From an uncultured Thermoplasmata archaeon (GTDB lineage Archaea > Thermoplasmatota > Thermoplasmata > SG8-5), in the NCBI GenBank assembly GCA_964354755.1, contig CAYHBA010000004.1, positions 12,644 to 76,643 on the forward strand: 64,000 nucleotides of DNA. Reading direction: 5' to 3'. Numbering within the stretch: position 1 is the stretch's first letter; each line of letters starts with the position of its first letter. A program made the position numbers and the translations under genes. Under the pieces are notes generated by a model, which saw nothing but the letters and a program-made list of their open reading frames with translations, was not told the origin of the DNA and did no database searches. Shown here one piece after another: positions 13,101 through 46,450 of the stretch.

Positions 13101-13463
13101 TGGAAGACCTACAGGGTCGGCAGCACGACGAATGACCTGGCCACAATCACCAACCTGATGGGTGTGTGGCTGTGGATAACCGCGAACGGCGGGGACCAGA
13201 TGCTGACCGTCGGTGTCAACGGCGACTACCCTGCAACAGCAGTGAACATCAACCTGTACACGGGCTGGAACATTGTCGGATACCCCACTGCAACGAGCAG
13301 GGCAGAATCCGCAACGCTGCCGGCAGCAGCGGACTTTGTAGCAGTCTGGCAGGCAGCAACACCGTACATAACGCAGCATGCCAAGGGCGCGGCCATGATG
13401 TCCCACGGAAACGCCTACTGGGTACATGTGACAGCTGATTGTTTATGGGTTGTAAACCCGTAA
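10158..13463 (+). CDS. Secreted papain-like cysteine peptidase (family C1) with FN3-like and unknown modules plus shared C-terminal domain
   Basis: 1101-aa ORF with an N-terminal signal-like hydrophobic segment. C1 motifs [19 protein letters not shown] (Cys), [11 protein letters not shown] (His) and [21 protein letters not shown] (Asn-Ser-Trp). Confidence 0.9.
12933..13460 (+). other. Shared CTD, copy 4, 176 aa
   Basis: [19 protein letters not shown]...[16 protein letters not shown]-stop. Confidence 0.85.
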
Positions 13464-13666
13464 TCCACATCCAAAGATAGCAATAACTGGCGCTTCATCG
13501 AGCGCCAGCGTTACGGAGGACGAGCATGTGCACCGGAGGTTTTTCATTTACTGAATAATTCTTTTTGCCGAAGGTGCGCCCCGCAGGCGAATAGGTCGCC
13601 GAGGCAAAGACGAATCCGCAGATTCGTCTGAGAGCGCAGTCCGAAGTTCAAAAAGAAATACTCGCA
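13464..13666 (+). repeat. Structured post-stop repeat element, copy A (MITE-like, unclassified)
   Basis: 203 bp starting right after the stop of the C1 peptidase gene, with 4 mismatches and no indels versus 23284..23486. Perfect hairpins CTGGCGCT-n6-AGCGCCAG (13487..13508) and GACGAATC-CGCA-GATTCGTC (13609..13628). Outer inverted repeat TTCTTTTTG...CAAAAAGAA. Confidence 0.8.
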
Positions 13667-13668
13667 TA

Positions 13669-13716
13669 CTTTGGGTGCATGTGACGGCAGATTGTACTTG
13701 GGTTGTTAATCCTTAA
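13669..13716 (+). pseudogene. Orphan copy of a CTD gene 3' end ([15 protein letters not shown]-stop) downstream of element A
   Basis: In-frame 16-codon fragment. It differs from the live 3' end (13419..13463) at 9 of 44 aligned nt, yet only one amino acid changes. Confidence 0.6.
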
Positions 13717-16948: not shown

Positions 16949-16983
16949 GACAACCCTCCATGTTTAAGTTAAGGAGTTCCGAC

Positions 16984-19900
16984 ATGAAGATATTTACTTT
17001 GCAGGCATTTGTTTGGATACTGATTTTAAACCTCATGATTTCCGGTATTATCTTCAATTTTGGTGATTCCCAGGCGGGCTCTGCCGACCTGGAAACAAAG
17101 AGCCAGGACGAATCACTCGCCGACGCCGATCCATGCCCGACTGCGGCATCAGAATCTCCAGCAGTTCCGCAACTGAGGCATATCGGGACATATCCGATCG
17201 CATCCCCGGATGCCAATCTGGATAATCCCAACGACCCGTATTATACCGAATCCCTATACTTCATTAACAATCAAGCTTCGGGCGCTCCAGAAGAAAGTCC
17301 TCCATTGAAAACCGAAAACACGCAATCCCGATTGGCCGGACCTCCTGCCACATCAGATACTGGCAGCGTTGGGTATGAACCTAGGGCGATATACAGCGTT
17401 CAGGGGATTTTCAGATATCAGGACAGGGAGCAGGATGAGACTGGATTCACCGGAGTAAATCCATTATTGCCAATCAGGTTCGCGGATGTCGAAGTATATG
17501 ACGTCAACACACAGCAGGTATTGGCCTCGGGCCACACTGACTTCAACGGTTATTTTTCAATCATGGTCAACGATGCTGTGATTCGGGACATTGCGATTCG
17601 GGCCATAACCACTTCAAATGACCATCCCGGCCTGACAAATCATTCCGTGACACTGACTCCCGGTGACGGCGGTGCCCCCTACACGATAAGTACCCCAACA
17701 TATTTCAATCATCCATTGACAGACATTGATTTCACCGGAACGCCAGTCAATGCAATGGCCGGCGGTGCAGGGAACGCATTCCACCTCTTCGATTGCCAGG
17801 AGAACGTTGAAAGGTACGCTGAAAACCTCACTAGCGCCCAGCCCAGGCACAATCTCACAATATACTGGAGAGCCGGAGCGTCCTATGGCAAGGAGTATGA
17901 CACTAATGGACACATTTATCTGATGGGTTCAAGCGCGGATGACGATTCATACGACGACACTGTGGTTTACCATGAAATGGGGCATTACCTCGCTGGCTGC
18001 TATTCGAAAGATGCAGGATATTACGGCGCTCATAGTCTGAATGGCAACTACGACATCCGGCTTTCATATACCGAGGGCCTGGGCAGTTATTTCATGGGGG
18101 CAGTCAGAGATTATCTGGGTGTGGTTCAGCCCCTTATCTACATCGAGACGAACGGCGTGAGCCTGAACTGGTACGGATACTCGATTAGCTACGACACAGA
18201 CACGCCCTCGGGATATTCCAACCAGCCCCGCCCGTACTCCATGTGCACCGCTGAAAACGAGGCTACGGTCGGTCATGCGCTATTCGACATCGTGGACAGC
18301 TCCGCATCTGACGATGGCACTCCGGGAGTCGACGACGATTTGTTCGACCTGTCAGGATTGCAGGGCGACCAGCTTGTCTGGGACGTTTTGGTTTCCATCG
18401 ACGAAAATGCAACATCATTCACAAAGAAGATCACCATGGAGACCTTCATCGATACTTTCAGGACTATGTACCCTGTATATAATGCGCAACTTACACAGGT
18501 ACTGGCGGACAGCGGTATAGAATACCTCGACGATGCCTATGAGAATGATGACACTTATCTCCAAGCGCAGCCCAAACTTATCGGCAGTGAATATCATCAT
18601 ACGTATTTTGGGGCGGGCGACCAGGACTGGTCGTCATATGGTTTAACCGTAGGAACAGACTATGTTTTCAAGACGATTGACCTGTACGATTGGGCGGACA
18701 CCAAACTTGAGCTTTATGATACTGATGGAATTTCACTGTTAGATTCAAACGACAACCGGGACGACGGAACCAAAGAATCTCTAATAAGATTCTTAGCCCC
18801 AGCAAACGGCCAGTATTACATCAAATCCACAAGAACACCGGAAACGCCGATGCCCACCGGCGAATATGGCAAATATAATCTAACATCATACATAGTTTTC
18901 AATCCCGTGGTTGTTTCCATTGTCCCAAACACAGGGCCAGTTCCTGGGGGGACCACTGTATGTATCACAGGCGAGAATTTCACTGCCAGCGGATCAATCC
19001 TCTTTGGTGTGTATGAGGCGACAGGCGCAATTCTGGCAGGCAATGTCTACACTGTGACCACGCCAGCTAATGTGCCTGGTCCAGTTGACGTGGTTGTGAA
19101 TAATCCTCCTACACAGGATGGCATCATTCCAAGCGGCAAAATGGTAAATGGTTTCACTTACACAGGCACACCGCTGGCCCCGATTGTCAGAGAGGTGTCT
19201 CCGCCCTTTGGGTCGTCAATAACCACGAATGATGTAACAGTCGAGGGCGATTATTTCATGAGTGGAGCCAGCTTGTATTTTGACGACTTGGTGATTATTA
19301 CACCATCCGTAATCAATCCGAAGATGATAACAGCGACTTTACAGATTTTACCCGCCGACATGTATGATGTGAACGTCACAAACCCGGACATGCAATATGA
19401 TGTGCTTGCCAACAGTTATGAGAGCACGCTTCAAATGTTCAACTCGACTACAGTCATTTTCGACTATTACAGCCCACTCACGACAACGATCTTTGTTCCG
19501 GACGATTTCATTATTTCGGACCTCTATGTTTTCGTTAATGTTTCTTATCCCGGGGACGAGCCCGTGGTGGAACTCGAGAGCCCCATTGGCACCACAGCAA
19601 AAGTATTTGATGAAATTCAAGTTGTTGAAGATGATGAAAACTGGCGTACGCAAATGAGTTCCTGGTTCGGGTACGCCGAAGCCCCTTCGGAGGGGCTTTA
19701 CCAGTACAAGGGAGAACACACCCAGGGAGAGTGGACCCTGCGGCTGACCAGCCCAACAAGCTGGGATAGCACCCTGCACTCATGGGGCATCTGTTTCCTG
19801 CAATACAGCCATAGGAACATCTCCAGAATCCTTTACACGCCTTGCGAGTACAGGAATTACCTTCTGGCTGTGGACGGAACCACGGGCGAGCATCTCTATC

Positions 19901-22900
19901 GGGCCAAGCTCGAAACCTGGCCCGGAAGGGTCACTGTTTCGGCTGACCAGACTAAAGTTTACTCCAGTACTTTTAGCTATTATAATGCCACAACAGGCGG
20001 TTACACGGATTCTTTATTGAATTGTTTCCAGAGTTTCACCGGCAAGAAGATCCAATCGATAATTCTCGAAGGCAAGATGGGCCGTCAGGCACTGGCGACG
20101 ATACCCAACAGCAATAAAATAGTGGCAATTACATCTCACAATCTCTACGTAATAAATACCGACACCCAGGCAATGGAAGACTACATTGTATTACCCTCAG
20201 TATACAATACATTGGAGCTCGGTGTAGCTGTTTCGCCCGACGGCCTTACTGCATACTGCACCCCGAACACCGGAACCCTGGAATATGTTCAGATGGTGGA
20301 TTTATCGACAATGACATTATCCGGCCAGATATCCACTCCAGGTAAGATTCCATACGATGTTGAAATCTCGAATGACGGTGCGACAGGTGTTATTGGCTAT
20401 ACCACTAATACAATGGACGTTTTTGACACCTCGACCGATACAATATTCGACACAATCAATCTCCCCTCCTGGGCCGCTTGGATAAGCCTTACTCCCGATG
20501 CCACAAAGGCTTTTTACACGACTTATCAATGGTATGCTGGATTTGGTACAGCTAACCTGACCACGCATGCAACCCACAATGTAATGGACGATCCCGAATC
20601 CACAACAATTGGGGTCAAAATCTCCAATGATTACAGGTCATATGTCGTTGATTGGTACAGGGGGAAGATATTGATTTACGATGCCAGGACCGAGTTGAAA
20701 ATCGACGAATTCGATGTGATGGACGGCATAAGCCTGTACCCATCCGGCATAGACATTGTGGATATGGTTGGTGCTCCATCATTATCGGCGAATGTGGTCA
20801 TGGGAGGGAACATCAGTTTATCCTGGTCGGCCCCATCAAGCCCCGGCACCCCAATATCCTATTATAAAATCTATCGCGGCACTTCATCCGGGCGGGAGGT
20901 GTTCTACAGGAACACAGCCTCTACTGGTTTCCTCGACTACAACATCACTAATGGCCAGTATTTCTATAGGGTTGGCGCTGTGAATGGGGCTGGAGAGGGC
21001 GGCCTTTCAAACGAGGCACAGGCAGTCTCGATGGCCCCAACAGTGACTGTTGACCACCCGACAGCACCCGATACAATAGAATCCGGCAATGTGAACATCT
21101 TCTGGGCAATTACTGACAATGACCCGCTGCCCAATGGCGGGAATGTCGTTAACATATCTTACTCGGACGATTGCGGGGCAAGCTGGATTCCGCTGGCAAC
21201 AAATGCCGGCGCGAACTCGGACCCGTTTACATGGAATGCCGGCTCACTGCCTGACGGAGTGAGTTACATAATAAAAATCACCGCATACGATGCCACCGGG
21301 CAGAAAGGAATAGGCTATTCGGACAACCCCTTTTCACTGGACAATGTTCCTGACGACAGATGGCATTTCCAAACCCAGTTCAGCGGTCCGCTCAAGGATC
21401 TTGACATGAAGCCCGTCGAGCTTAGCCAGCAGGTCATTCCAATTCCTGTGGATGGGGCAGACGAGTACGTAATCGGTAAATGGGAAGGGAGAGCATATCC
21501 TTCGGGAAGGGACATCTCCGGGCAATGGAACTTCAGCGTCTGGGGTTTTGTGTCCATCGAAGGCCTTTGCAGTGCACACCTCAAAGCGAAAATATACACG
21601 TCCAGCAATCCGACGCCACTTTACACGACAGTTTCCGATAATGAGGATATCAATGAATTTTCCTCCGCATATCACGAATATTGCTGGCAGGATTTCGGTG
21701 TATCTGGCATGACAATTCCTGGGGATCATGTCCAGGTCGAACTGGTGTTGGACGCGTCCTTCGGGACACCCACGGATTTCGTTTACAACAACACGGACAG
21801 CGACATTCCCGGCAACGGCACGGTAACCGGAACACATGTGGCCACCCAAGTATCCGATGATGTTTATCAAACAATACAAGAGATACCGGCAGGCAAGACA
21901 ATCTTAATTGCCGAGACCTTTGACGGTTCCTTCCCACCTGCGGGATGGGCCAAATACACAGGCAATCCGGCCACAACATGGCAGACCTCCGGGGGAAGCC
22001 CGAGCGGAGACCCTCCCGACGCATATATATACCGCTGTTCCACGGACGGACTCAGTTCTGTCTGGAGGCTCTATGCAGGACCGATTGACACGAGCCAGGT
22101 GACTTCATTGACGCTAGAATGGGCCTGCAATTTCAACCAATGGAACGGCGCGGGTTGTTTCGGGAAAGTCCAGACAAGCACTGACGGAATAACTTGGCAT
22201 GACACCTCATGGATTAAGCCCACAGATGGCCCCGATGTCATAGGGCCTCAGAGCCTGTTGATTGAAACAGGCGACGAAGGCTCGGGCACGTTCTATTTCA
22301 GTTTGACATTGGAAGGAGAGCCTTACCACATGAACTCCTGGGCGGTGGATGATGTCAATCTTACCGGACTGACCACCTCCATTCTGGACCACAAATGGCC
22401 AGTGATAGTCGAAGGCAGCATGACAGAAGTCCTGTTCGGAATAGAAGCCCATGTCTCATCTGGAGAAGCTGTTTCTGTATATTACTCAGCAACAGGCTCA
22501 GGGCCAGTCGGTGGTGTGGGCTGGTGCCACATGCTCGAAGTGATAAAAACATCAGACGACGACTCGCTCCAGACCTATGTGTTGCCAGTTAGCACTTCCG
22601 GTACGATATGCATCGGCGCCAAGGACATCGACCGTGCAGCCGGCGACATCACCCTGGACACATTCTATATCGACAGGATGTTCGTCAGGTCTGAATTCGC
22701 CAGCCCAATTTTTAATTTCGGATACGACTCCAGCCAGACACAATCCTATGTCGAACCGCCTGCATCGCAATCAATCTTCAGCATTCCGGTGCTGCCCGGC
22801 TGGAATCTAATCTCGTTCCCGATTCAGGCATCGGGCTCACCGCTGGACGTACTGAACGATATGGGCGGCGACACAATCTGGGACATTGTCAAACGGTTCG

Positions 22901-23283
22901 ACCCGCTAAGCCCCGCAGACCCATGGAAGACTTATCGCGTCGGTTCTACAGTTAATGACCTATTGAACATCGACAACACCATGGGTCTCTGGGTACACAT
23001 CACCAATGCCGGAACCGACAGCCTTCTGACTGTGCCGGGTGCAGAGCCAGGCATTACGGTCATCAGCCTTCGCACAGGCTGGAACCTTGTCAGTTATGCA
23101 TCATTGACCCCGAGAACCGCAAACGTCGCCCTTTCAGGCACATCCACGGATATGATAGCCTATTATCAAGCAGCCTCGCCCTACATCACGGACACTGCAG
23201 ACCTGGAGACCGTGACCATGGAGGCCGGAAAGGCGTACTGGGTGCATGTGACGGCTGATTGTTTGTGGATTGTAAACCCGTAA
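16984..23283 (+). CDS. Giant secreted zinc metallopeptidase (HExxH) with CarboxypepD_reg-like, PPC-like, IPT/TIG, P-domain-like, beta-propeller, FN3, MAM-like and shared C-terminal domains
   Basis: The ORF is open from 16960. ATG 16984 has AAGGAG 7 nt upstream and a TTAAAATA box at 16941-16948. Motifs seen: VVYHEMGHYLAG (HExxH); YENDDTYLQAQ...DQDW (pre-peptidase C-terminal-like); VSIVPNTGPVPGGTTVCITGENF (IPT/TIG); GEHTQGEWTLRLTS (P-domain-like); LYVINTDT/AVSPDGLTAY (YVTN-type propeller). Confidence 0.85.
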   Translation: MKIFTLQAFVWILILNLMISGIIFNFGDSQAGSADLETKSQDESLADADPCPTAASESPAVPQLRHIGTYPIASPDANLDNPNDPYYTESLYFINNQASGAPEESPPLKTENTQSRLAGPPATSDTGSVGYEPRAIYSVQGIFRYQDREQDETGFTGVNPLLPIRFADVEVYDVNTQQVLASGHTDFNGYFSIMVNDAVIRDIAIRAITTSNDHPGLTNHSVTLTPGDGGAPYTISTPTYFNHPLTDIDFTGTPVNAMAGGAGNAFHLFDCQENVERYAENLTSAQPRHNLTIYWRAGASYGKEYDTNGHIYLMGSSADDDSYDDTVVYHEMGHYLAGCYSKDAGYYGAHSLNGNYDIRLSYTEGLGSYFMGAVRDYLGVVQPLIYIETNGVSLNWYGYSISYDTDTPSGYSNQPRPYSMCTAENEATVGHALFDIVDSSASDDGTPGVDDDLFDLSGLQGDQLVWDVLVSIDENATSFTKKITMETFIDTFRTMYPVYNAQLTQVLADSGIEYLDDAYENDDTYLQAQPKLIGSEYHHTYFGAGDQDWSSYGLTVGTDYVFKTIDLYDWADTKLELYDTDGISLLDSNDNRDDGTKESLIRFLAPANGQYYIKSTRTPETPMPTGEYGKYNLTSYIVFNPVVVSIVPNTGPVPGGTTVCITGENFTASGSILFGVYEATGAILAGNVYTVTTPANVPGPVDVVVNNPPTQDGIIPSGKMVNGFTYTGTPLAPIVREVSPPFGSSITTNDVTVEGDYFMSGASLYFDDLVIITPSVINPKMITATLQILPADMYDVNVTNPDMQYDVLANSYESTLQMFNSTTVIFDYYSPLTTTIFVPDDFIISDLYVFVNVSYPGDEPVVELESPIGTTAKVFDEIQVVEDDENWRTQMSSWFGYAEAPSEGLYQYKGEHTQGEWTLRLTSPTSWDSTLHSWGICFLQYSHRNISRILYTPCEYRNYLLAVDGTTGEHLYRAKLETWPGRVTVSADQTKVYSSTFSYYNATTGGYTDSLLNCFQSFTGKKIQSIILEGKMGRQALATIPNSNKIVAITSHNLYVINTDTQAMEDYIVLPSVYNTLELGVAVSPDGLTAYCTPNTGTLEYVQMVDLSTMTLSGQISTPGKIPYDVEISNDGATGVIGYTTNTMDVFDTSTDTIFDTINLPSWAAWISLTPDATKAFYTTYQWYAGFGTANLTTHATHNVMDDPESTTIGVKISNDYRSYVVDWYRGKILIYDARTELKIDEFDVMDGISLYPSGIDIVDMVGAPSLSANVVMGGNISLSWSAPSSPGTPISYYKIYRGTSSGREVFYRNTASTGFLDYNITNGQYFYRVGAVNGAGEGGLSNEAQAVSMAPTVTVDHPTAPDTIESGNVNIFWAITDNDPLPNGGNVVNISYSDDCGASWIPLATNAGANSDPFTWNAGSLPDGVSYIIKITAYDATGQKGIGYSDNPFSLDNVPDDRWHFQTQFSGPLKDLDMKPVELSQQVIPIPVDGADEYVIGKWEGRAYPSGRDISGQWNFSVWGFVSIEGLCSAHLKAKIYTSSNPTPLYTTVSDNEDINEFSSAYHEYCWQDFGVSGMTIPGDHVQVELVLDASFGTPTDFVYNNTDSDIPGNGTVTGTHVATQVSDDVYQTIQEIPAGKTILIAETFDGSFPPAGWAKYTGNPATTWQTSGGSPSGDPPDAYIYRCSTDGLSSVWRLYAGPIDTSQVTSLTLEWACNFNQWNGAGCFGKVQTSTDGITWHDTSWIKPTDGPDVIGPQSLLIETGDEGSGTFYFSLTLEGEPYHMNSWAVDDVNLTGLTTSILDHKWPVIVEGSMTEVLFGIEAHVSSGEAVSVYYSATGSGPVGGVGWCHMLEVIKTSDDDSLQTYVLPVSTSGTICIGAKDIDRAAGDITLDTFYIDRMFVRSEFASPIFNFGYDSSQTQSYVEPPASQSIFSIPVLPGWNLISFPIQASGSPLDVLNDMGGDTIWDIVKRFDPLSPADPWKTYRVGSTVNDLLNIDNTMGLWVHITNAGTDSLLTVPGAEPGITVISLRTGWNLVSYASLTPRTANVALSGTSTDMIAYYQAASPYITDTADLETVTMEAGKAYWVHVTADCLWIVNP
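22777..23280 (+). other. Shared CTD, copy 6 (divergent), 168 aa
   Basis: FSIPVLPGWNLISFP...[15 protein letters not shown]...TGWNLVSYA...[17 protein letters not shown]-stop. Confidence 0.8.
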
Positions 23284-23486
23284 TTCACAACCAAAGATAG
23301 CAATAACTGGCGCTTCAGCGAGCGCCAGCGTTACGGAGGACGAGCATGTGCACCGGAGGTTTTTCATTTACTGAATAATTCTTTTTGCCGAAGGTGCGCC
23401 CCGCAGGCGAATAGGTCGCCGAGGCAAAGACGAATCCGCAGATTCGTCTGAGAGCGCAGTCCGAAGTTCAAAAAGAAATACTCGCG
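23284..23486 (+). repeat. Structured post-stop repeat element, copy B
   Basis: Starts right after the stop of the metallopeptidase gene. About 98% identical to copy A. Confidence 0.8.
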
Positions 23487-23488
23487 TA

Positions 23489-23536
23489 CTTTGGGTGCAT
23501 GTGACATCAGACTGTATTTGGACAATTACTCCATAA
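23489..23536 (+). pseudogene. Orphan copy of a CTD gene 3' end (LWVHVTSDCIWTITP-stop) downstream of element B
   Basis: Same architecture as at element A. The distal part differs from orphan A, so each locus keeps its own remnant. Confidence 0.6.
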
Positions 23537-23634
23537 ACCGCTCAGTGATAATTCATGAAAAATTACTGGCGTTGAAGCGAACACTAGAGTTATGGATTTC
23601 CGAGCAGGCGAGGGCGGTTTCTCCGAGGCGCGCC

Positions 23635-24258
23635 TCATTTTTCGTAATTGACTAATGCCTTTTCATATGCCAATTGCACTCTTTCGTTGAAGCAAACAAT
23701 GACCACCAACTCCAATGGCACATCCGAATCGATGAAACGGCCAATCTCAGTTATAGCAATCTTCGCAGCCCTCTCCAACGGAAATCCGTACGCCCCGGTG
23801 CTTATGGAGGGGAATGCGACCTCATGGATGCCGTTCTCGACAGCCAGCTTCAACGAATTTCGATAACAGCTCGCCAGGAGTTCGTCCTCGCCATGCCCGC
23901 CCCCTTTCCAGACAGGCCCCACAGTGTGTATGACCCACTTGGCCGGAAGGTTGTGTCCCTTGGTAATCTTCGCTTCCCCAGTATCGCAACGAATGACATC
24001 ACCAAACGCTACAGAGTCATTCGTCTCACTCGCATTGATGAATGGAGAATGTTCCTGAGCTACAATGCTCGTGCAGCCCCCGAGTTTCCGGCATTCCTCC
24101 AGCAATCCCGGGCCCGCCGCCCTGTGGATGGCCCCGTCCACCCCGCCCCCGCCCAGCAGGGAATTGTTTGCCGCATTGACAATGGCCTCTATCTCAAGCT
24201 TGGCGATGTCTCCCTTTATAATCTCTATTCTTGCAGGCATGTCCTCGCCGCATGACAA
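23635..24258 (-). CDS. Macro domain protein (ADP-ribose / O-acetyl-ADP-ribose hydrolase-like)
   Basis: Motifs [36 protein letters not shown] and [14 protein letters not shown]. An extra segment of about 28 aa sits between GGC and DTGEAKIT. Confidence 0.85.
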
Positions 24259-24320
24259 TCATCGCCCGCCGATAAAACCCTTTTTATGGCAGTGTTGCAT
24301 CTCTTCTCACGGGAAGAGTC

Positions 24321-26027
24321 ATGGGCACATGGGCATTTCTGCTTGCCATCATAGTGTTCACATTGCTCGGCTGCGTCGCCGGCATAGTCACGGGATTAAT
24401 CCCAGGCATACATGTCAACAATGTTGCCGCCCTGACCCTGGCCTCCCAGTCCCTGCTTCTGTCACTTGCCATGTCAGCGTTCGGATGGGCTCAGCCATCC
24501 GCCTCCCAGCTCATAATCATAGTCTGCTCGCTGGTGATTGGGAATGCCATATCCCACACATTCATGGACTTCATCCCCTCGGTGTTCCTAGGTGCTCCTG
24601 ACAGCGAAACGGCGCTTACGCTTCTTCCCGGCCACAGGATGATGCTGGCCGGGAGAGGGTACGAAGCCGTGAAATGCTCGGTGATAGGCAGCTTCGGGGC
24701 CGTCATCGGAGCCCTCGTCCTGCTGGTGCCCATCCGCCTGGTGATAGGCTCCCCGATCAATGCATACGATGCCCTGGCCAAGTGGATGCACCTTCTGCTC
24801 ATATGCGTGAGCGTGTTCCTGATATTGACTGAAACGGCCAGACCGGGAGATGCTTCCATCGGAAAATGGAAAATGCATGTGCGCGGCCATGTGCTGCTGG
24901 GACCCTTATCTCCGGACGCGGTGAGGCATGAAGGCCAGACAGTGATGTCCGCGAAAGGCCTCAATGTGAATGTTCAAGGCCAAGTGGTCTTCGAAGCCAA
25001 TGTTGCTAACTGTTTCTCAGACGCAGGCGAAGAATACCTGCTCCTTGAAACCGGGGCCGAACCTGTTGTGCTGGAACTGGCAGACAAACCGAATATCGGG
25101 CCTCGCAGGGGCGAGCGCGTCGTGGCAGTCGGCTATGTCAACCGAACCGTTACATGGAAGGACCATGCCGTAAAAAGGGCGCTGGCTGCGGGCGTGTTCA
25201 TGTTGGCCGGAATGCTGGGCATAGCCCTTCTTTACATGCCAGGAACCGCCTCCAGAAACATCTTCCTGGTCAGCATACCATCCGTCGAGCAAAGCACCGT
25301 GCTGATGTTTCCGCTGTTCACGGGCCTGTTCGGGGTTTCCACCCTCCTCCTCAGCGTCAGGGACTCCCCCCGGATACCGGAACAGAAGGTCGAAAAGGTG
25401 AGGGTGAAGATCGGCAAGCTGAGGCAGCTCAGGTCCATAGCATCAGGATGCGCTGCCAGCCTGGCATCCTGGTTTCCCGGCATCTCTTCGGCCATATCGA
25501 CCCTGATATCCGTGTTCCTGACGCGCTCGTCGGACAGGGGCATGGAAAAAGAGGGCACTGATTCAGAGACCCAGGAATTCATAATATCGGTTTCGGCGGT
25601 CAACACATCAGTGGCGCTGTTCAACCTTGTCGCGCTGTTCGTCATACTGAAGTCAAGGAGCGGCGCGATGAAGGCCGTTGAAGGCCTGATTTCGAACGAC
25701 CTGGTGGCCTGGGACCCGTTCGGCAACGTGCCAATGGCAATGGCCGCGCTCCTGGTTTCAGCGCTGGTGGCCGGTATCGTGTCTGTTCCGCTTACTTTGT
25801 TCTTCGGAAAGCTGTTCGCCAGGAAATGCTCGAGAGTGAACTACCCCCTCCTTGTGAAATCAGTCATCATCTTCCTGGCCGTGATGGTGGCGATATTCTC
25901 TGGTCTGCTGGGAATCGTGATACTGGCCGTGAGCACATGTGTCGGCATGATACCGCCCCTCATCGGCGTGAAGAGGGTGCATCTGATGGGCTGCCTAATC
26001 GTCCCGGTGATTCTCTTTTTCCTGTGA
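24321..26027 (+). CDS. TctA/DUF112-family polytopic membrane protein with inserted soluble segment
   Basis: 568-aa ORF with many hydrophobic helices. The N-terminus (GIVTGLIPGIHVNNVAALTLA) resembles archaeal COG1784/TctA-like proteins. The central ~120 aa are non-hydrophobic. Confidence 0.6.
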   Translation: MGTWAFLLAIIVFTLLGCVAGIVTGLIPGIHVNNVAALTLASQSLLLSLAMSAFGWAQPSASQLIIIVCSLVIGNAISHTFMDFIPSVFLGAPDSETALTLLPGHRMMLAGRGYEAVKCSVIGSFGAVIGALVLLVPIRLVIGSPINAYDALAKWMHLLLICVSVFLILTETARPGDASIGKWKMHVRGHVLLGPLSPDAVRHEGQTVMSAKGLNVNVQGQVVFEANVANCFSDAGEEYLLLETGAEPVVLELADKPNIGPRRGERVVAVGYVNRTVTWKDHAVKRALAAGVFMLAGMLGIALLYMPGTASRNIFLVSIPSVEQSTVLMFPLFTGLFGVSTLLLSVRDSPRIPEQKVEKVRVKIGKLRQLRSIASGCAASLASWFPGISSAISTLISVFLTRSSDRGMEKEGTDSETQEFIISVSAVNTSVALFNLVALFVILKSRSGAMKAVEGLISNDLVAWDPFGNVPMAMAALLVSALVAGIVSVPLTLFFGKLFARKCSRVNYPLLVKSVIIFLAVMVAIFSGLLGIVILAVSTCVGMIPPLIGVKRVHLMGCLIVPVILFFL

Positions 26028-27502: not shown

Positions 27503-30172
27503 ATGGGGTCGTGTCTCAGCATTTTCCTGGTCGCCTGCCTTCTGTTTGCAGCACTGCCGATGGCGAACCGTGTGTCTGAAGAGAGACCCATTGAAGCGGA
27601 CCAAACCCGCGCCTCGGCCCTTGCAGGTTCGGTATTCATAAACGAGATATTGTTCGACCCCGAAGGCGACGAAGTCTCGGGGGAATGGGTCGAGGTGCTG
27701 AATGCGGCCGGAACATCGATCAATCTGGTGGGCTGGGCCCTCTCCGACCAGGAGGGCGGCGTCGATTTCACATTCCCCAGCATAATATTTCCGCAGGCCG
27801 GAATCGCCGTGGTGCATGCGGGTTCCGGAACCAATGCCACGGCATTCGCCGGAGGGCGCGCTGAGTTCTACATGGGAAAGGCTTCGGCCCTGCTCTCGAA
27901 CACCGGCGATGACGTTCTCCTCCGTGATGCCGCGAATGCCACCGTAGACTTCGTGTCCTACGGCCAGTGGGACGGCGCGTCCGTGCAGCCGCCGCCCGCT
28001 GATTTCCAATATGAGCACAGCAATGCCACAGCCCCGGAAGGATTCTCACTTGCATTGTGCAGCGGCATTCTTAGGCAGTCCGTGCCAACGCCGCTTTTCG
28101 GCAACAATGAGGACTGGCCGCATGGGGCCGGTGTCCTGCTGAGGCAGGTCCATTACTATGCCTGGGGCGAGAATGAGTTTGTCAGCATATTCAACCCGCT
28201 TTCGGTCCAGGTGGACATATCCTCATGGTTCATCACTGACAGCGAGGGCATTGCGGCCTTCCCCCCTGGAACGGCCATAGGCTCGGGCGAGGAGCTGGTC
28301 ATGGCCCAGAACGCCACCAATTACTGCATGCAATTGCTGCGCAGCCCCGATTTCGAGTATGGCGGAAGCAATCTCTCTGTGCCGGACGCAGCCGTCATCG
28401 GCTCGGCTCCGGCTCTGTCCAACGCCGGCGATGAAGTACTGCTCATGAACAATTACGGCACCTGCATGGACGCCTATGTCTACGGCAGCTCATTCTATGT
28501 GGCAGCAAGCTGGACCTCGGGACCAGCAGGGGTCTTGGGCCAGGGCCAGATTGCCAGAAGGAATCCGGGCCAGGACACGAACACGTCCGGGGATTGGTCC
28601 TGCATCAGGCCCTATGTGTTGGGCCAATCTGACTTTTCAAGCGCCCAGTACACGGCCGACGGGGCAATTACCGCTTTCGTATCCCCTGACTGCAGCTTCG
28701 GCGCAGTTTCAGGGACCGTCGACAATGCCAGCTCCAGCATATGGCTGAGTGTCTACGAATTCACGAGCCCGCCTCTCGCGGAAAGGCTGGTTGCGGCTGC
28801 CCAGCGCGGCCTTGATGTCCGCCTCTTCCTGGAAGGAAGCCCAGTCGGAGGCCTCACGCCTGAAGAGATATACCTGGCAAGGCTGGTGGTGCAGGCCGGC
28901 GGCCATGTTCGCATAATGACAAATGACCCCGACAATGGCATCCACGAGCGCTATACATATATCCATGCGAAATACGCCATCTTCGATTCAGACACAATGC
29001 TCATCACGTCGGAGAACTGGGGGCCAAGCGGGATACCCGAACCCGGAGAGGCAGGGAACAGGGGGTGGGGTGCAATAATAAAAGACACGGACCTTGCCTC
29101 CTACTTCGCCGGCGTCTTCGCCGAGGACTGGAACCCGTCGAGGCCAGACAGCGTCTCATTCGATCAGAGCCATCCGCTCTGGAACGCTGGAACAGCGCCA
29201 TCCGGCAATGCCACACATTACACGCCTGCATTTGAGCCATTGACAGTGACCTCGCAGGCCAGCGTCATCCCGATTCTGGCGCCGGACACATCCCTGGCTG
29301 AAGAAACAGTCCTGGGCATGATGGATTCGGCAACCGAGAGGGTGTATGTCGAGCAGTTCTATGCCTACAAGCACTGGGGAGACAGGTACGCTGACACACC
29401 GGTCACGGCCCCGGACCTTTACCTCGAAGCGGCAATAGACGCGGCCAGGCGGGGCTGCGAGGTGAAAATCCTGCTCGACGCGACATATTACAACGTCGAT
29501 GAAACAGACCCGATAGACAATGACGACACGGCCGCTTACATCAACGCCATAGCTGCAGCCGAGGCTCTTGACCTGGAATCCAAGCTGGTGAACCTGACAG
29601 AGCATGATTTCGACAAGATTCACAACAAGGGCGTGATAGCGGATAATTCCGTCCTCATATCCAGCATCAACTGGAATCTCAATTCTGTCACATGCAACCG
29701 CGAGTCCGGCGTCATCATAGGAAACAACGAGGTGGCTGATTATTTCACCGGCGCATTCATGCTTGATTGGCAGGACGACTGGACGCCGCCGTTCGCGCAT
29801 TTCGGGCTGAACACCTCCTACGCGGCCAATTCCACGGTCGTGATAAACGCGACCACATCATCGGACAATGTGGGCATAGTGAATTACACATGGACGCTGG
29901 ATAGCCAAGTCGTATGCTGGGGCATTGTTTTCTCCCATGTGATTGCCGAGCCCGGTCAGTACATTGTAAACCTGACTGTGAGGGATGCATGGGACAATGC
30001 CGGGACATATGAGCGCACCCTGAATGTGGTGCCAGCCGATGAGATGCAGGCAAACGAGACTGATTCGGGCGGCATGGACTCGTCCACTGCCAAGATGCTG
30101 CTCATGTTCCTTCTGATTCCGCTTTTCATTTTCATAGCCATATTGGCCGTGGCAAGACTCAAGCGCCGGTGA
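27503..30172 (+). CDS. Secreted phospholipase D/nuclease-family (two HKD motifs) enzyme with two lamin-tail domains, PKD domain and C-terminal TM anchor
   Basis: Signal peptide MGSCLSIFLVACLLFAALPMA. LTD signatures VFINEILFDPEGDEVSGEWVEVLNAAGTSINLVGWALSD, plus a second weaker copy. HKD motifs IHAKYAIFDSDTMLITSENW and IHNKGVIADNSVLISSINW. PKD SSDNVGIVNYTWT...YIVNLTVRDAWDN. TM LLMFLLIPLFIFIAILAVA followed by RLKRR. Confidence 0.85.
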   Translation: MGSCLSIFLVACLLFAALPMANRVSEERPIEADQTRASALAGSVFINEILFDPEGDEVSGEWVEVLNAAGTSINLVGWALSDQEGGVDFTFPSIIFPQAGIAVVHAGSGTNATAFAGGRAEFYMGKASALLSNTGDDVLLRDAANATVDFVSYGQWDGASVQPPPADFQYEHSNATAPEGFSLALCSGILRQSVPTPLFGNNEDWPHGAGVLLRQVHYYAWGENEFVSIFNPLSVQVDISSWFITDSEGIAAFPPGTAIGSGEELVMAQNATNYCMQLLRSPDFEYGGSNLSVPDAAVIGSAPALSNAGDEVLLMNNYGTCMDAYVYGSSFYVAASWTSGPAGVLGQGQIARRNPGQDTNTSGDWSCIRPYVLGQSDFSSAQYTADGAITAFVSPDCSFGAVSGTVDNASSSIWLSVYEFTSPPLAERLVAAAQRGLDVRLFLEGSPVGGLTPEEIYLARLVVQAGGHVRIMTNDPDNGIHERYTYIHAKYAIFDSDTMLITSENWGPSGIPEPGEAGNRGWGAIIKDTDLASYFAGVFAEDWNPSRPDSVSFDQSHPLWNAGTAPSGNATHYTPAFEPLTVTSQASVIPILAPDTSLAEETVLGMMDSATERVYVEQFYAYKHWGDRYADTPVTAPDLYLEAAIDAARRGCEVKILLDATYYNVDETDPIDNDDTAAYINAIAAAEALDLESKLVNLTEHDFDKIHNKGVIADNSVLISSINWNLNSVTCNRESGVIIGNNEVADYFTGAFMLDWQDDWTPPFAHFGLNTSYAANSTVVINATTSSDNVGIVNYTWTLDSQVVCWGIVFSHVIAEPGQYIVNLTVRDAWDNAGTYERTLNVVPADEMQANETDSGGMDSSTAKMLLMFLLIPLFIFIAILAVARLKRR

Positions 30173-43686: not shown

Positions 43687-44533
43687 GGAGTACAAGAAAC
43701 CTTCCTGGGCAGTGATGAACATGAGGGCAGTGTTCGGGCGCGCCTACCCGCGCATAATCGGCGTGAACAGGGAGCTCTCCTGGGTATTCTTCGAAACTGT
43801 TCTCCCGCTTCTGGGAGTGGCGGCGTATGTCTTCGTCTACAAGGCGCTGGAGGCCCCGCCCGAGTACATAGGCTACGTCATAATCGGCGGAGCCATGACA
43901 GCGTACTGGATGAATGTGCTCTGGAGCATGGCCGCGCAAATGTACTGGGAGAAGGAGATGGGCAACCTCGAGCTTTACCTCGTCGCGCCCATATCCAGGA
44001 TGTCAGTCCTCGGTGGCATGGCCCTGGGAGGCATGTTCTCCTCGTCAGTGAGGGCGCTAAGCACCATAGTCGTGGGAATGGTCATCTTCGGGATTTCACT
44101 TTCTCTTCCTGACCCGCTCATGTTCGCCGGCATATTCATATTCACCATGATTGCGCTGTACGGCATGGGCATGATGTTCGCCTCGCTGTACATGCTGTGG
44201 GGCAGGGAGGCGTGGCACATGTCCTCCCTGTTCACCGAACCGATCTACCTTGTGTCAGGCTTCTATTTCCCAGTGAAGGGATTCACTGCTATGCTGGACA
44301 ACCCAGGCACCTGGATAGCGGTGGGCGCATCCATAATTCCGATAACGCTGGGCCTTGACGGGATGCGGCAGTGCCTCTACCCGGGCACGATGGACGGGTT
44401 CATACCGGTGTGGCAAGAGCTGATAATCCTGGTCGGGCTCTCCGTGCTGTTCATGATACTGGCCAAATACAGCCTGCAGTATATGGAGAATCTCGGGAAG
44501 CGCGAGGGGAGGCTGACGATGAGATGGCAATGA
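43676..44533 (+). CDS. ABC-2-type transporter permease
   Basis: 285-aa polytopic membrane ORF overlapping the ATPase gene by 11 nt. Confidence 0.8.
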   Translation: MKFEEYKKPSWAVMNMRAVFGRAYPRIIGVNRELSWVFFETVLPLLGVAAYVFVYKALEAPPEYIGYVIIGGAMTAYWMNVLWSMAAQMYWEKEMGNLELYLVAPISRMSVLGGMALGGMFSSSVRALSTIVVGMVIFGISLSLPDPLMFAGIFIFTMIALYGMGMMFASLYMLWGREAWHMSSLFTEPIYLVSGFYFPVKGFTAMLDNPGTWIAVGASIIPITLGLDGMRQCLYPGTMDGFIPVWQELIILVGLSVLFMILAKYSLQYMENLGKREGRLTMRWQ

Positions 44534-45477
44534 ACATTCCACCCGTCAGACCTGGCGCTCTCAGGAAACACATTCCGAGACATCCGATAAGGCGCGCAAT
44601 CCAGGACAAGGCGAAGAACAGAGCAAGGTACATGAATACTCAGACCTTCAAATGGTCTGCCTGGCTGGGATGGCAGATGGAGAGCAACTGGGCCGACCCG
44701 TTCCTTTTTGCCGTGTACAGTATAGTCAAGCCGATTGCGGCGTCGCTCATACTTGTGGTGATGTACCAGATAATAGCGCTCCTGGGCGGCGGCACGGACA
44801 TAGGCCTGTTCTATTACATGTTCGTCAGCAACGCCTTCTTCATGTACGTGGGCCAGGTTCTGTTCGGCGTGGCCCAGATAGTGCATGACGACAGGGAGCA
44901 TTACCAGACTATTAGGTACATATACATCTCGCCGTCCAACTACTTCGCCTACATGATGGGCAGGAGCGTAAGCAAGCTCATCATAACGACGTTCGCGGTC
45001 GTCATAACCATGGCATTCGGCGTTCTCATGCTGGACGTGCCCCTGAGCATTATCGGAGCCAACTGGCCCCTGTTCTTCGTGGTCATGGTCATAGGCATAT
45101 TCTGCATCATGGCTTTCGGCCTGGCCCTGGCGGGGCTTTCCTTCCTCACGGCAAAGCACCAGGGCGGCATGAACGAGGGAATAGCCGGCCTATTCTACCT
45201 GTTCTGCGGCGTGGTGTTCCCGGTGAGCGTGCTGCCTTCCTGGGGCGTCTCGTTCGCCAAGATACTGCCCATAACATACTGGCTGGAGCTCGTCAGGCGC
45301 AGCCTCGACCTCGGCGTGGGCATGGACTCCGCCCTTGCGGGAACGTCCACGGCGACATGCATCATGATACTGTGCCTCAGTACGGTTGTGTTCACAATAC
45401 TGGCCCTGGCAATATTCAAGGCCGGGGACACCGTTGCCAGGAAGAAAGGCCTAATAGACACGACCACGGCTTACTGA
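44530..45477 (+). CDS. ABC-2-type transporter permease (second subunit)
   Basis: Start set at the ATGA overlap with the upstream stop (alternative ATG at 44524). The upstream part of the ORF lies inside the previous gene. Six or so hydrophobic helices. Confidence 0.75.
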   Translation: MNIPPVRPGALRKHIPRHPIRRAIQDKAKNRARYMNTQTFKWSAWLGWQMESNWADPFLFAVYSIVKPIAASLILVVMYQIIALLGGGTDIGLFYYMFVSNAFFMYVGQVLFGVAQIVHDDREHYQTIRYIYISPSNYFAYMMGRSVSKLIITTFAVVITMAFGVLMLDVPLSIIGANWPLFFVVMVIGIFCIMAFGLALAGLSFLTAKHQGGMNEGIAGLFYLFCGVVFPVSVLPSWGVSFAKILPITYWLELVRRSLDLGVGMDSALAGTSTATCIMILCLSTVVFTILALAIFKAGDTVARKKGLIDTTTAY

Positions 45478-45605
45478 ATGCTGACATTCGGATGGATGTC
45501 AGGAATGCGGAGGACGAGCATGATGGCCTGGAGTTTTTCTATTAATGAATTTTTCTTTTTGCGTAAGGCCATCCAGCGCAGTCCGAAGCCCAAAAAGAAA
45601 AACTC
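45478..45605 (+). repeat. Structured post-stop repeat element, copy C (short variant)
   Basis: 128 bp directly after the ABC-2 permease stop. Shares the left core GGAGGACGAGCATG...TTCTTTTTGC..AAGG (46/60 nt, ungapped) and the right core GCGCAGTCCGAAG..CAAAAAGAAA.ACTC (27/30) with copies A and B. It has its own hairpin CTGACAT-n8-ATGTCAG (45481..45502) and lacks the ~50-nt centre of A and B. Confidence 0.7.
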
Positions 45606-45629
45606 ATAGACACGACCACGGCCTACTGA
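45606..45629 (+). repeat. 24-bp direct repeat of the ABC-2 permease 3' end (ATAGACACGACCACGGCCTACTGA) flanking element C
   Basis: Matches 45454..45477 at 23 of 24 nt. Overlaps the stop codon of the convergent CN-hydrolase gene. Confidence 0.75.
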
Positions 45630-46450
45630 TCCTTCTGTTCAGGCTGGGCGAACTCGCCCAGCCTTTCCATGAGGTCCTGCCTTGTCTCCCGGATGGTCGG
45701 CCTGAACTGCCTCGCCACTTCTATCTCGTTCAGGTCCACTTCCGCTTTCACCAGGCCCTCCAGGAAGGGTTTGCCCCCCGCTTTGACATTGCCCCTCGGC
45801 CCTATGAGCTGGTCGCCTCCCCAGAACGTCATGTTCTGCTCAGTCCCGACAAGATTCGCGAAAGCCACGAAAATAGTGTTCTCTATTGCCCTGGCAAGCA
45901 GTATCTTCTCGAAATAATCCCTTGTGACTGACGGCGAAGCTGAAATGCACAGGACAATGTCCGCACCCTCCAGCGCGTAGAGCTTGGTTATCTCGGGGAA
46001 GAAAATGTCAAAGCAAATCTCTATGCCCATCCTCCCGACTGGCGTGTCGAATATGGGCATTTTGTCCCCGCGGGCGAAGTACAGGTCCTCCTCGAAAGGC
46101 CCGAAGTTGGCCAGAACCATCTTGCGGTATGTCTCCGGTTCCGAATCAGGGCTCAGCACCAGGGCGGAGTTGTAAATCACCCCTTTCCTGTCCGCGTCAA
46201 GCTCTGGCATTCCAACCACAAGCCAGCGGCCATTCTCCTTGGCTATTGCATCCAGCTTTCTGACGGAATGGCCGCCCAAGCCCTCGGCCAGCTCGGAATA
46301 CCTGTCGCGGAGAGTGTATCCGGTGAGAAACATCTCGGAGAATGCCAGCACCTCGGAGTCGGTGCTCCGCACGGCACGCTCGACAAGTTCAACGTTGTGA
46401 GCCTTGTCCCCCAGCCTGGGCTGGACCTGGACCAGCGCTATCTTCGCCAT
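45623..46450 (-). CDS. Carbon-nitrogen hydrolase (nitrilase superfamily)
   Basis: MAKIALVQVQPRLGDKAHN..., FSEMFLTGY (Glu), GIEICFDIFFPE (Cys). Confidence 0.85.
   Translation of the reverse strand: MAKIALVQVQPRLGDKAHNVELVERAVRSTDSEVLAFSEMFLTGYTLRDRYSELAEGLGGHSVRKLDAIAKENGRWLVVGMPELDADRKGVIYNSALVLSPDSEPETYRKMVLANFGPFEEDLYFARGDKMPIFDTPVGRMGIEICFDIFFPEITKLYALEGADIVLCISASPSVTRDYFEKILLARAIENTIFVAFANLVGTEQNMTFWGGDQLIGPRGNVKAGGKPFLEGLVKAEVDLNEIEVARQFRPTIRETRQDLMERLGEFAQPEQKDQ

Follow-up and report, generated by a model that had tools for sequence, protein, structure and literature searches.

The 64,000-nucleotide stretch of DNA analysed here (the window) comes from the genome of an uncultured Thermoplasmata archaeon, a 2.25-Mb assembly of 30 contigs in which an archaeal small-subunit (SSU) rRNA is present. 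In this window a gene for a large secreted protein is followed directly by a non-coding element, designated element B, and then by a second version of the gene's own 3' end. We call the end upstream of the element the live end, and the one downstream of it the orphan. The sister locus A shows the same arrangement in the same window, and a third copy, Z, which is 99-100% identical to A and B, lies at G000:C4:5217-5418, 7.4 kb ahead of the window start. All three copies fall within 31 kb and belong to a tandem array made up of nine genes for large secreted peptidases. This array spans window positions 2-23283 and C4:1-12643, and every one of its genes ends in a domain of about 90 amino acids (the C-terminal domain, CTD); the peptidase types are C11 clostripain, C1, C13 legumain-like and one with an HExxH motif. 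Positions are window coordinates unless a contig is named, G000 being this genome and C4 and the like its contigs. The features are collected in Table 1.

Table 1. Coordinates and parts of element B, its host gene, sister locus A and other copies in the window
Feature	Position	Strand	Description
B host gene	16960-23283	+	2107-aa secreted multidomain protein, TIG and fn3 domains (Pfam); HEMGH motif at residue 338
B host gene C-terminus			shared ~90-aa CTD (list of open reading frames, Pfam)
B live gene end	23236-23283	+	first 17 nt, TACTGGGTGCATGTGAC, are the conserved crossover block
B live end, remaining 31 nt		+	imported, A/Z type; 90% nt identity to the A tail
Element B, long form	23284-23483	+	98-100% identical to 13464-13666 and C4:5217-5418
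Element B leader	23284-23305	+
Element B P1 hairpin	23306-23328	+
Element B core		+	runs to ...AAATACTC
Irregular helical rod of B	23338-23462	+	covariation in 88 distinct copies
Rod strands, P3	23338-23341 and 23459-23462	+
Rod strands, P2	23349-23354 and 23393-23398	+
Invariant loops of B	23341-23348 and 23453-23459	+	CGAGCATG and AGCGCAG, respectively
U-rich motif 1 of B	23359-23365	+	GTTTTTC, proposed Hoogsteen strand
U-rich motif 2 of B	23379-23387	+	TTCTTTTTG, proposed Watson-Crick partner of the A-tract
Two-hairpin insert module of the long form	23399-23452	+	placed at an invariant internal loop
A-rich tract of B	23469-23478	+	CAAAAAGAAA, stops 5 nt short of the element 3' end
B orphan gene end	23487-23536	+	head and tail as below
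B orphan head	23487-23505	+	TACTTTGGGTGCATGTGAC, common to A and Z
B orphan tail	23506-23536	+	native former end, codes SDCIWTITP and stop
Sister locus A	13416-13716	+	Peptidase_C1 gene; live end 13416-13463, element 13464-13666, orphan 13667-13716
Short-form member	45454-45629	+	live end 45454-45477, element 45478-45605, repeat copy 45606-45629
Degenerate 5'-arm remnant of another copy	23563-23644	+	P1-like hairpin and 5' arm only

The initial annotation had described B as a near-identical copy of A, and its particulars stand. The intervals 23284-23486 and 13464-13666, each of 203 nt, differ by 4 mismatches (element positions 2, 7, 35 and 203) and no indels; the preceding 48 coding nt (13416-13463 and 23236-23283) show 4 differences; and both loci continue after the element with TACTTTGGGTGCATGTGAC before they diverge, into GGCAGATTGTACTTGGGTTGTTAATCCTTAA at A and into ATCAGACTGTATTTGGACAATTACTCCATAA (coding VHVTSDCIWTITP and stop) at B. 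Ungapped identity between the two loci falls to background beyond about 60 nt upstream and about 50 nt downstream of the element, and the resulting repeat of about 300 nt (family D7) is, with 94% identity, not a product of chance. As for the host labels, the A host does encode a Peptidase_C1 domain, together with a lectin domain (Pfam), while the HExxH label of the B host corresponds to the HEMGH motif only and no family is assigned to it.

Two further observations concern this junction. In each of three element subfamilies the orphan heads are interrupted, at a common position, by an insertion of 2 nt (TACT-TT-GGG, TACT-AA-GGG and TATT-TT-GGA; window 23487-23495 and 13667-13675; G000 C3:~121236 and C2:~113100). 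In addition, the degenerate remnant just 3' of the B orphan, which has a weak match to the 5' arm in a hidden Markov model (HMM) search (C4:36239-36263), indicates that the site was struck more than once.

The initial annotation proposed that a unit had moved or been copied between two peptidase genes, a proposal that plain paralogy would make needless if the similarity of the two genes extended uniformly upstream. Three lines of evidence speak for the moved or copied unit. First, in a three-way alignment of Z, A and B the similarity is not uniform: A and B are 40-60% identical across the upstream CTD, 88% over the last 48 coding nt, 98-100% over the element and the head of the orphan (19-22 nt); in the orphan's tail the value is down to about 72%, and past it to 20-30%. 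Second, body and tail of the B domain have discordant relatives among 37 paralogous CTDs, the body identities being taken from a multiple alignment of these domains. The 90-aa body of B is nearest to that of C10+67434 (53% aa identity), A coming 12th (44%) and Z 35th (38%), whereas the 31-nt live tail of B is nearest to A (90% nt identity) and then to Z (81%); Z, A and B are the sole carriers of the long form among the 37. Third, the B orphan ends in VTSDCIWTITP and stop, and the closest homologue in another species of the genus (genome G002), which has a plain hairpin terminator after the gene and no element, ends in VTSDCLWTVTY and stop. Because this element-free homologue ends like the B orphan, the orphan is native and the live tail was imported, which agrees with the earlier suggestion that the host gene's own terminus stays behind.

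Together, these comparisons show that B received from an A- or Z-like paralogue a segment that begins with the live tail, includes the element and ends 19-22 nt into the orphan, and they place both exchange points in or beside the conserved 17-nt block coding for YWVHVT. Most likely, then, what had been called a moved unit was copied by recombination from an element-bearing paralogue, for which only homologous recombination in the 17-nt block would be needed. The long forms of other species are only about 75% similar, lie in unrelated contexts and carry no repeats; with the trio itself being 98-100% alike, we regard it as a recent expansion within the peptidase cluster of this genome.

The clustering of Z, A and B in the CTD array also invites the explanation that one ancient insertion into a CTD gene was duplicated along with its host and homogenised by gene conversion in the array, a process that can produce the mosaic of identities seen. 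Against this explanation, the six other complete-end CTD genes of the array have no element between live and orphan ends, the domain body of B is among the most divergent, and the family occurs in many unrelated genes, the repeats there consisting of the ends of the respective host genes. We hold paralogy with concerted evolution to be very unlikely, and as the sole explanation it is already contradicted by the family-wide data.

These data define B, on sequence criteria, as a copy of an apparently undescribed family of non-coding structured elements of about 95-200 nt. An HMM built from short copies finds 28-30 copies in the genome, including the short form of Table 1. Of 41 related genomes, 24 have hits to a covariance model of the family, at 1-38 copies each; these are all genomes of the genus, most genomes in four families of the order and a scatter of others in the class. 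For one subfamily an exact pattern was matched 49 times in 185,579 species genomes, always in metagenome-assembled genomes (MAGs) labelled Thermoplasmata, Methanomassiliicoccales or Methanobacteriota, and the family, as sampled by these searches, is confined to one clade of uncultured Thermoplasmata. Rfam returned no family for the element, whether the window was searched at gathering scores or the locus and seven other loci at E-values up to 10, and the viral contigs, scanned twice by pattern, contained no true copy, the sole two hits lying by chance within a coding region.

The succession of live end, element and orphan recurs in this family. A typical copy lies just past a stop codon, in the same orientation as the gene, and has a precise 3' end (...AAAGAAAWACTC), directly behind which the final 19-123 nt of the gene occur a second time. 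The left copy of this flanking repeat ends at or near the stop codon of the upstream gene, and the right copy lies 0-12 nt past the core. About a third to a half of the copies carry such a repeat of the host gene 3' end, and among the 105 copies with enough flank the repeat is clean in 37: 23 of these repeats include a co-oriented gene's stop codon, 1 includes only that of a convergent gene, and 13 are non-coding. Its length is 19, 23, 27, 42-51, 54, 64, 91 or 123 nt in this genome and 23-123 nt across genomes, and this variation, here as in the other genomes, does not fit a target-site duplication of fixed length. The repeats resemble instead an attL/attR pair, in that they are direct, hold the 3' end of a gene and have, as predicted from sequence, their functional copy on the element side.

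The differences between live and orphan ends fall mostly at silent sites, with counts at codon positions 1/2/3 of 31/17/72 in this genome and 22/5/96 across genomes, and all orphans in this genome retain the W..D..W motif and the stop codon. From this predominance of silent differences it follows that the two ends were shaped as coding ends in separate paralogues or alleles; decay of a duplicate in situ, which would not give such a pattern, was rejected. The upstream copy is thus shown to be the working end and the downstream copy the displaced former working end. In a cysK-like gene the repeat of 123 nt (97.5% identity) is followed by homologous tails written in different codons (...EKYISTNLYKSKDVA and ...EKYISTELYGDKAQVR, each with its stop), i.e. 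TNLYKSKDVA versus TELYGDKAQVR. At the short-form member (45454-45629), a 24-nt repeat parts the convergent genes 44371-45477 (+) and 45623-46450 (-), the ends of which originally overlapped by 7 nt; the repeat copy at 45606-45629 also holds the stop codon of the gene at 45623-46450, and both genes are intact.

From this architecture we propose that the family spreads by homology. A donor with the order [gene...tail][element][head of gene end...] would recombine with any element-free homologue of the gene, the left exchange occurring within the gene and the right one involving the repeat downstream of the donor element and the end that the recipient already has. The resulting locus would read, in order, recipient upstream sequence, donor tail, element, donor head and recipient tail, as is seen at B. 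The element and its repeat would thereby form a self-contained homology cassette for which every homologue of the host gene is a possible site of entry; this route is equivalent to a Campbell-type integration of a circle carrying a 3' gene fragment. Such a cassette is expected to be enriched at targets present in multiple copies, and this enrichment is observed: 8 of the 38 large CTD-ending genes are occupied and account for about half of the gene-associated copies, yet these genes make up less than 2% of all genes. The host genes also recur across species, as the cysK-like repeat starts at the same place in G000 and in genome G005, and one further host gene carries the element in three species.

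The likeness of the repeats to attL/attR sites raises the alternative that a site-specific recombinase acts in trans on a miniature integrative element, our element being a derivative that has lost its genes and is akin to a cis-mobilisable element. The replacement end with silent changes and the displaced native end match the architecture of such integrations, as do the precise 3' junction of the element and the occurrence of one copy with cargo between its arms. The targets, however, share no common core: they comprise CTD genes, a cysK-like gene, an ABC permease gene, a class II aminoacyl-tRNA synthetase-like gene (named by eye from its C-terminus) and non-coding repeats, with repeats of 19-123 nt. 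Furthermore, no integrase or recombinase gene lies beside any copy examined (a genome-wide integrase census was not made), and there are no true matches on viral contigs. We judge a recombinase acting in trans unlikely.

The cargo-bearing copy just mentioned is at C10:11809-12569, where two arms enclose about 700 nt with two small open reading frames (ORFs) resembling a toxin-antitoxin pair. The first encodes a 108-aa zinc-ribbon MazE/AbrB-type antitoxin (PF04014, E = 1.3e-7) and the second an unclassified protein of 90 residues; the whole unit (locus C10:11547-12620) lies between a live and an orphan CTD end. Searches with arm pairs in this genome and in 115 fetched loci revealed no autonomous, transposase-coding relative of the element, and only this toxin-antitoxin cargo form. 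An RNA-like repeat (...GGGCGGGGAGGTGTTAAAATCGGCA.ACAACCCGGC...GGCACC..TCAACCAYAWAG) stands directly ahead of several element copies, with its 3' end duplicated after them (C8:68805-69060, C8:96800-96975, C19:12065-12260 and C10:11700-11805); it has no match in Rfam.

The same layout of live end, element and orphan was found for another family of hairpin elements, which is unrelated to the first, measures about 200-330 nt and ends in CCGGTAAT...ATTACCGG. It occurs at two loci of G000 (C9:29707-30089 and C9:~24240-24520), with repeats of 131 and 74 nt whose right copy lies 0-2 nt past the terminal hairpin, and in three other species (L164, L166 and L172) it displaces the 3' two-thirds of an IS200-type tnpA gene. 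3'-terminal structures that abut the repeats are compatible with two possibilities, an RNA intermediate whose 3' end is protected and a nuclease cutting beside hairpins, each of which corresponds to an alternative route of movement.

In the first, a stable 3' fragment of the host mRNA, running to the element terminus, would be copied into DNA, perhaps circularised, and would then recombine into homologues. Such copying would account for the 23-to-1 bias towards the sense strand, for the precise 3' end with a variable 5' boundary, and for the fact that the element and the unrelated hairpin family both end in a stable 3' structure abutting the repeat. Moreover, triple helices of the type formed by the element for nuclear expression (ENE), which the core of our element resembles (see below), are typical of retroelement RNAs (PMC13541005), and microhomology of 1-3 nt is visible at several junctions (by eye, unquantified). 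Nevertheless, this genome has no reverse transcriptase (RT) of the RVT_1 type, and RT genes are found in 4 of 24 element-bearing versus 4 of 17 element-free genomes. An RT was rejected as a partner on both counts, namely its absence here and its lack of correlation with the element across the 41 genomes, and we regard RNA-mediated copying as improbable. A diversity-generating retroelement was also rejected, the differing sites being spread over all four bases in both copies and no RT being present.

In the second, an IS200-type HUH (Y1) transposase would mobilise the element as single-stranded DNA by cutting beside hairpins, as RAYT does on REP/REPIN sequences, and the repeats would come from a one-ended excision product that carries upstream gene sequence and later recombines into a homologue. 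A Y1_Tnp gene, with 1-3 copies, uniform scores and no TnpB, is indeed present here and in most of the element-bearing order, its protein is 60-85% conserved, and such an enzyme would explain the strand specificity, the structure-dependent recognition and the precise hairpin-adjacent end. On the other hand, the cross-tabulation of element and Y1 gene (16/8/6/11) is weak and confounded by phylogeny; two genomes that are more than 90% complete (G029 and G032) have the element and no Y1 gene; an element copy flanks the Y1 gene, which is not syntenic, in only 1 of 15 loci; HUH transposition makes no repeat; and no conserved target motif lies ahead of the elements. Mobilisation by this transposase therefore seems to us quite unlikely. 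The gene itself, at G000 C3:174851-175267, encodes a 138-aa IS200-type Y1 transposase with orthologues in L162-L175 and no TnpB partner, and the motif ACTTTCGCCCACCCC...TTTAAATA is conserved ahead of it; judging from these features it may be a domesticated, RAYT-like enzyme.

A conserved scaffold followed by locus-specific sequence is also the geometry of a guide RNA, and the element might in principle steer a TnpB/IscB-type nuclease to empty alleles and spread by homing. This genome and nearly all others with the element lack the TnpB domain PF07282, which is abundant in element-free genomes, and this led us to reject TnpB-guided homing as extremely improbable.

Turning to the structure of the element, its fold was deduced from covariation in 88 distinct copies from other genomes. 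The helices P3 and P2 are paired in 90.5% of cells as against 69% after shuffling, with covariation scores of 0.52 and 0.16, respectively, and controls in which the strands were slid all scored far lower. The 18 U.G pairs at one position identify the gene-sense strand as the folding strand. The invariant loops were considered as K-turns, a reading rejected because the would-be conserved A covaries as a Watson-Crick pair. Modules related to the two-hairpin insert of the long form are found at another site in other copies.

The core of the element is probably a triple helix of the ENE-plus-A-tract type, as suggested by the following regularities. First, in the notation U_a C U_b for U-motif 2 and A_c G A_d for the A-tract, 90 of 98 sequences, distributed over three length classes, have b = c, whereas shuffling gives a mean of 37 and none of 10,000 shuffles comes up to 90; in most sequences a matches d as well. 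Second, with U-motif 1 written U_e C U_f, the parallel register (e = c) fits 69 of 95 sequences against 33 expected, and the antiparallel register only 2 of 95. Third, the classes 3-3-3, 4-4-4 and 5-5-5 each recur within different subfamilies of P3; the three tracts of B (23359-23365, 23379-23387 and 23469-23478) are all of the 5-5-5 class. We read 16 exceptions of the "5 versus 4" kind as GAT-TTTT-C variants of a neighbouring variable position. Two pyrimidine tracts that mirror one purine tract, with C, G and C in register, characterise a U.A-U triple helix that includes a C+.G-C triplet, and the element holds what an ENE-type structure would call for in its primary sequence, i.e. two U-rich strands and an A-tract with antiparallel Watson-Crick and parallel Hoogsteen complementarity. 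We therefore picture a rod of P3 and P2 with invariant loops which, probably as RNA, would close a loop holding the two U-tracts; the A-rich 3' tail of the same element would be held by both tracts, in Watson-Crick pairs with one and in Hoogsteen pairs, including a C+.G-C triplet, with the other. According to a 2026 review, ENE-type triple helices occur only in viruses, eukaryotic long non-coding RNAs (lncRNAs) and plant or fungal transposons (PMC13541005), and we found no report of such an RNA triple helix in archaea. It is tempting to speculate that the fold blocks 3'-to-5' exonucleases and stabilises the upstream mRNA, in the manner of bacterial REP elements though by a different fold; such a role would explain the 23:1 strand bias by selection, where an RNA-mediated origin explains it by mechanism.

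Taking all this together, we consider it rather probable that element B is a recent copy of a family of folded elements, that it came by homologous recombination and displaced the gene end, and that it is probably able to form a triple helix. Several points weigh against this interpretation. Regarding the recombination, about half of the copies have no repeat, and the live ends of Z, A and B are 84-92% alike versus 98-100% for the elements, which excludes the transfer of a single rigid block and implies that the left crossovers vary or that conversion, with the element as its anchor, recurs. Recombination also leaves the first repeat at an unrelated gene and the always-precise 3' end unaccounted for, and the existence of a second hairpin family with the same architecture indicates that the displacement is not caused by the particular fold of the element. 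No insertion-free allele was seen, the genomes of the same genus being, at 65-69% identity, too divergent at the DNA level; and metagenome contigs gave no match to a codon-degenerate pattern of the B host nor to an exact pattern of the long-form module. Regarding the structure, the putative triplex is deduced from register covariation of low-complexity tracts in related sequences. Furthermore, the gap between P3 and the A-tract is only 2-5 nt, and P3 and the triplex cannot coexist across such a gap if P2 and P3 stack as a straight rod: they must alternate, or else the invariant loops CGAGCAGG/CCAGCGCAG, at one of which the long-form module is inserted exactly, bend the rod sharply. Lastly, the internal T5-C-T4/5 tracts resemble archaeal termination signals and might end the RNA ahead of the A-tract.

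A more far-reaching proposal, which we regard as possible but doubtful, joins these elements into one new class of mobile genetic elements: gene-less, RNA-structured cassettes (gene tail, element and gene fragment) that spread purely by homology between alleles, paralogues and species, whose core would be, as far as we could find, the first ENE-like triplex beyond eukaryotes and their viruses, and which, as the second hairpin family suggests, exemplify a general pathway from 3' ends to insertions. The triplex would then stabilise the host mRNA at its 3' end or an RNA intermediate of the element itself, and the pathway, possibly RNA-templated or HUH-dependent, would make structure-protected 3' ends of transcripts heritable as insertions.

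If the interpretation of B as a recombining, folded element is true, a tiny gene-less element colonises gene ends harmlessly: it brings along a functional version of the end that it displaces, and uses the displaced version as homology arm when it jumps again, which makes it a minimal form of selfish or mutualistic DNA. It would also provide a route by which the 3' ends of genes are exchanged between paralogues and between species. Triple-helix protection of 3' ends, known from viral, lncRNA and transposon RNAs of eukaryotes, would extend to archaea and offer a handle on their mRNA decay. In practice, the silent-site mosaics and doubled gene ends left by these elements can lead annotation, analyses of recombination and the assembly of Thermoplasmata MAGs astray.

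Elsewhere in the window, positions 27503-30172 hold an 889-aa ORF with a phospholipase-D/NucT-like nuclease domain and a weak similarity to DISARM DrmC (63.6 bits, under the curated cutoff).

Among known systems, the closest to our element are the integrative elements that restore the gene end they enter and the ENE-type triple helices, and it belongs to neither. Integrators that target the 3' end of a gene and bring a substitute end are exemplified by lambdoid phage 21 and e14 in the icd gene of E. coli and by the elements of tRNA genes, and a gene end is likewise substituted in the hybrid atp6 gene of Allomyces mitochondria with its mobile ORF. As in these systems, the incoming DNA appears to supply the live end, the native end is displaced, the differences are mostly silent and the gene stays intact. 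Unlike these integrators, which measure kilobases, have their own integrase or endonuclease and use one defined site, our element is 0.1-0.2 kb long, is gene-less, occurs at many unrelated gene ends with repeats of 19-123 nt and apparently needs only homology.

Similarly to miniature inverted-repeat transposable elements (MITEs), it is small, non-autonomous and multicopy, with rare longer relatives that carry cargo; unlike MITEs, it shows no target-site duplication of fixed length, no terminal inverted repeats were seen and no parent transposon was found. It is also comparable to the bacterial repetitive extragenic palindromic sequences (REPs) and their composites (BIME and REPIN), which are short, abundant, structured, non-coding and located in 3' intergenic regions, are thought to protect the upstream mRNA and are associated with a single-copy HUH transposase (RAYT). 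REPs have neither gene-end repeats nor a triple helix, and the HUH link of our element is a candidate only.

On the side of the triple helices, the relevant systems are the PAN RNA of Kaposi's sarcoma-associated herpesvirus (KSHV), MALAT1, MEN-beta and the RNAs of plant and fungal transposons (PMC13541005). Like these ENEs, our element has, as predicted from its sequence, two U-rich strands, a G+C-rich closing stem and an A-tract near the 3' end, with Watson-Crick and parallel Hoogsteen complementarity; a single C/G/C position stands in register in the three tracts, and the structure occupies the very 3' end of the unit. Unlike them, it resides in an archaeal host, has no match in Rfam and carries its A-tract only a few nt past the stem, so that the geometry of its triple helix would differ from theirs or alternate with P3.

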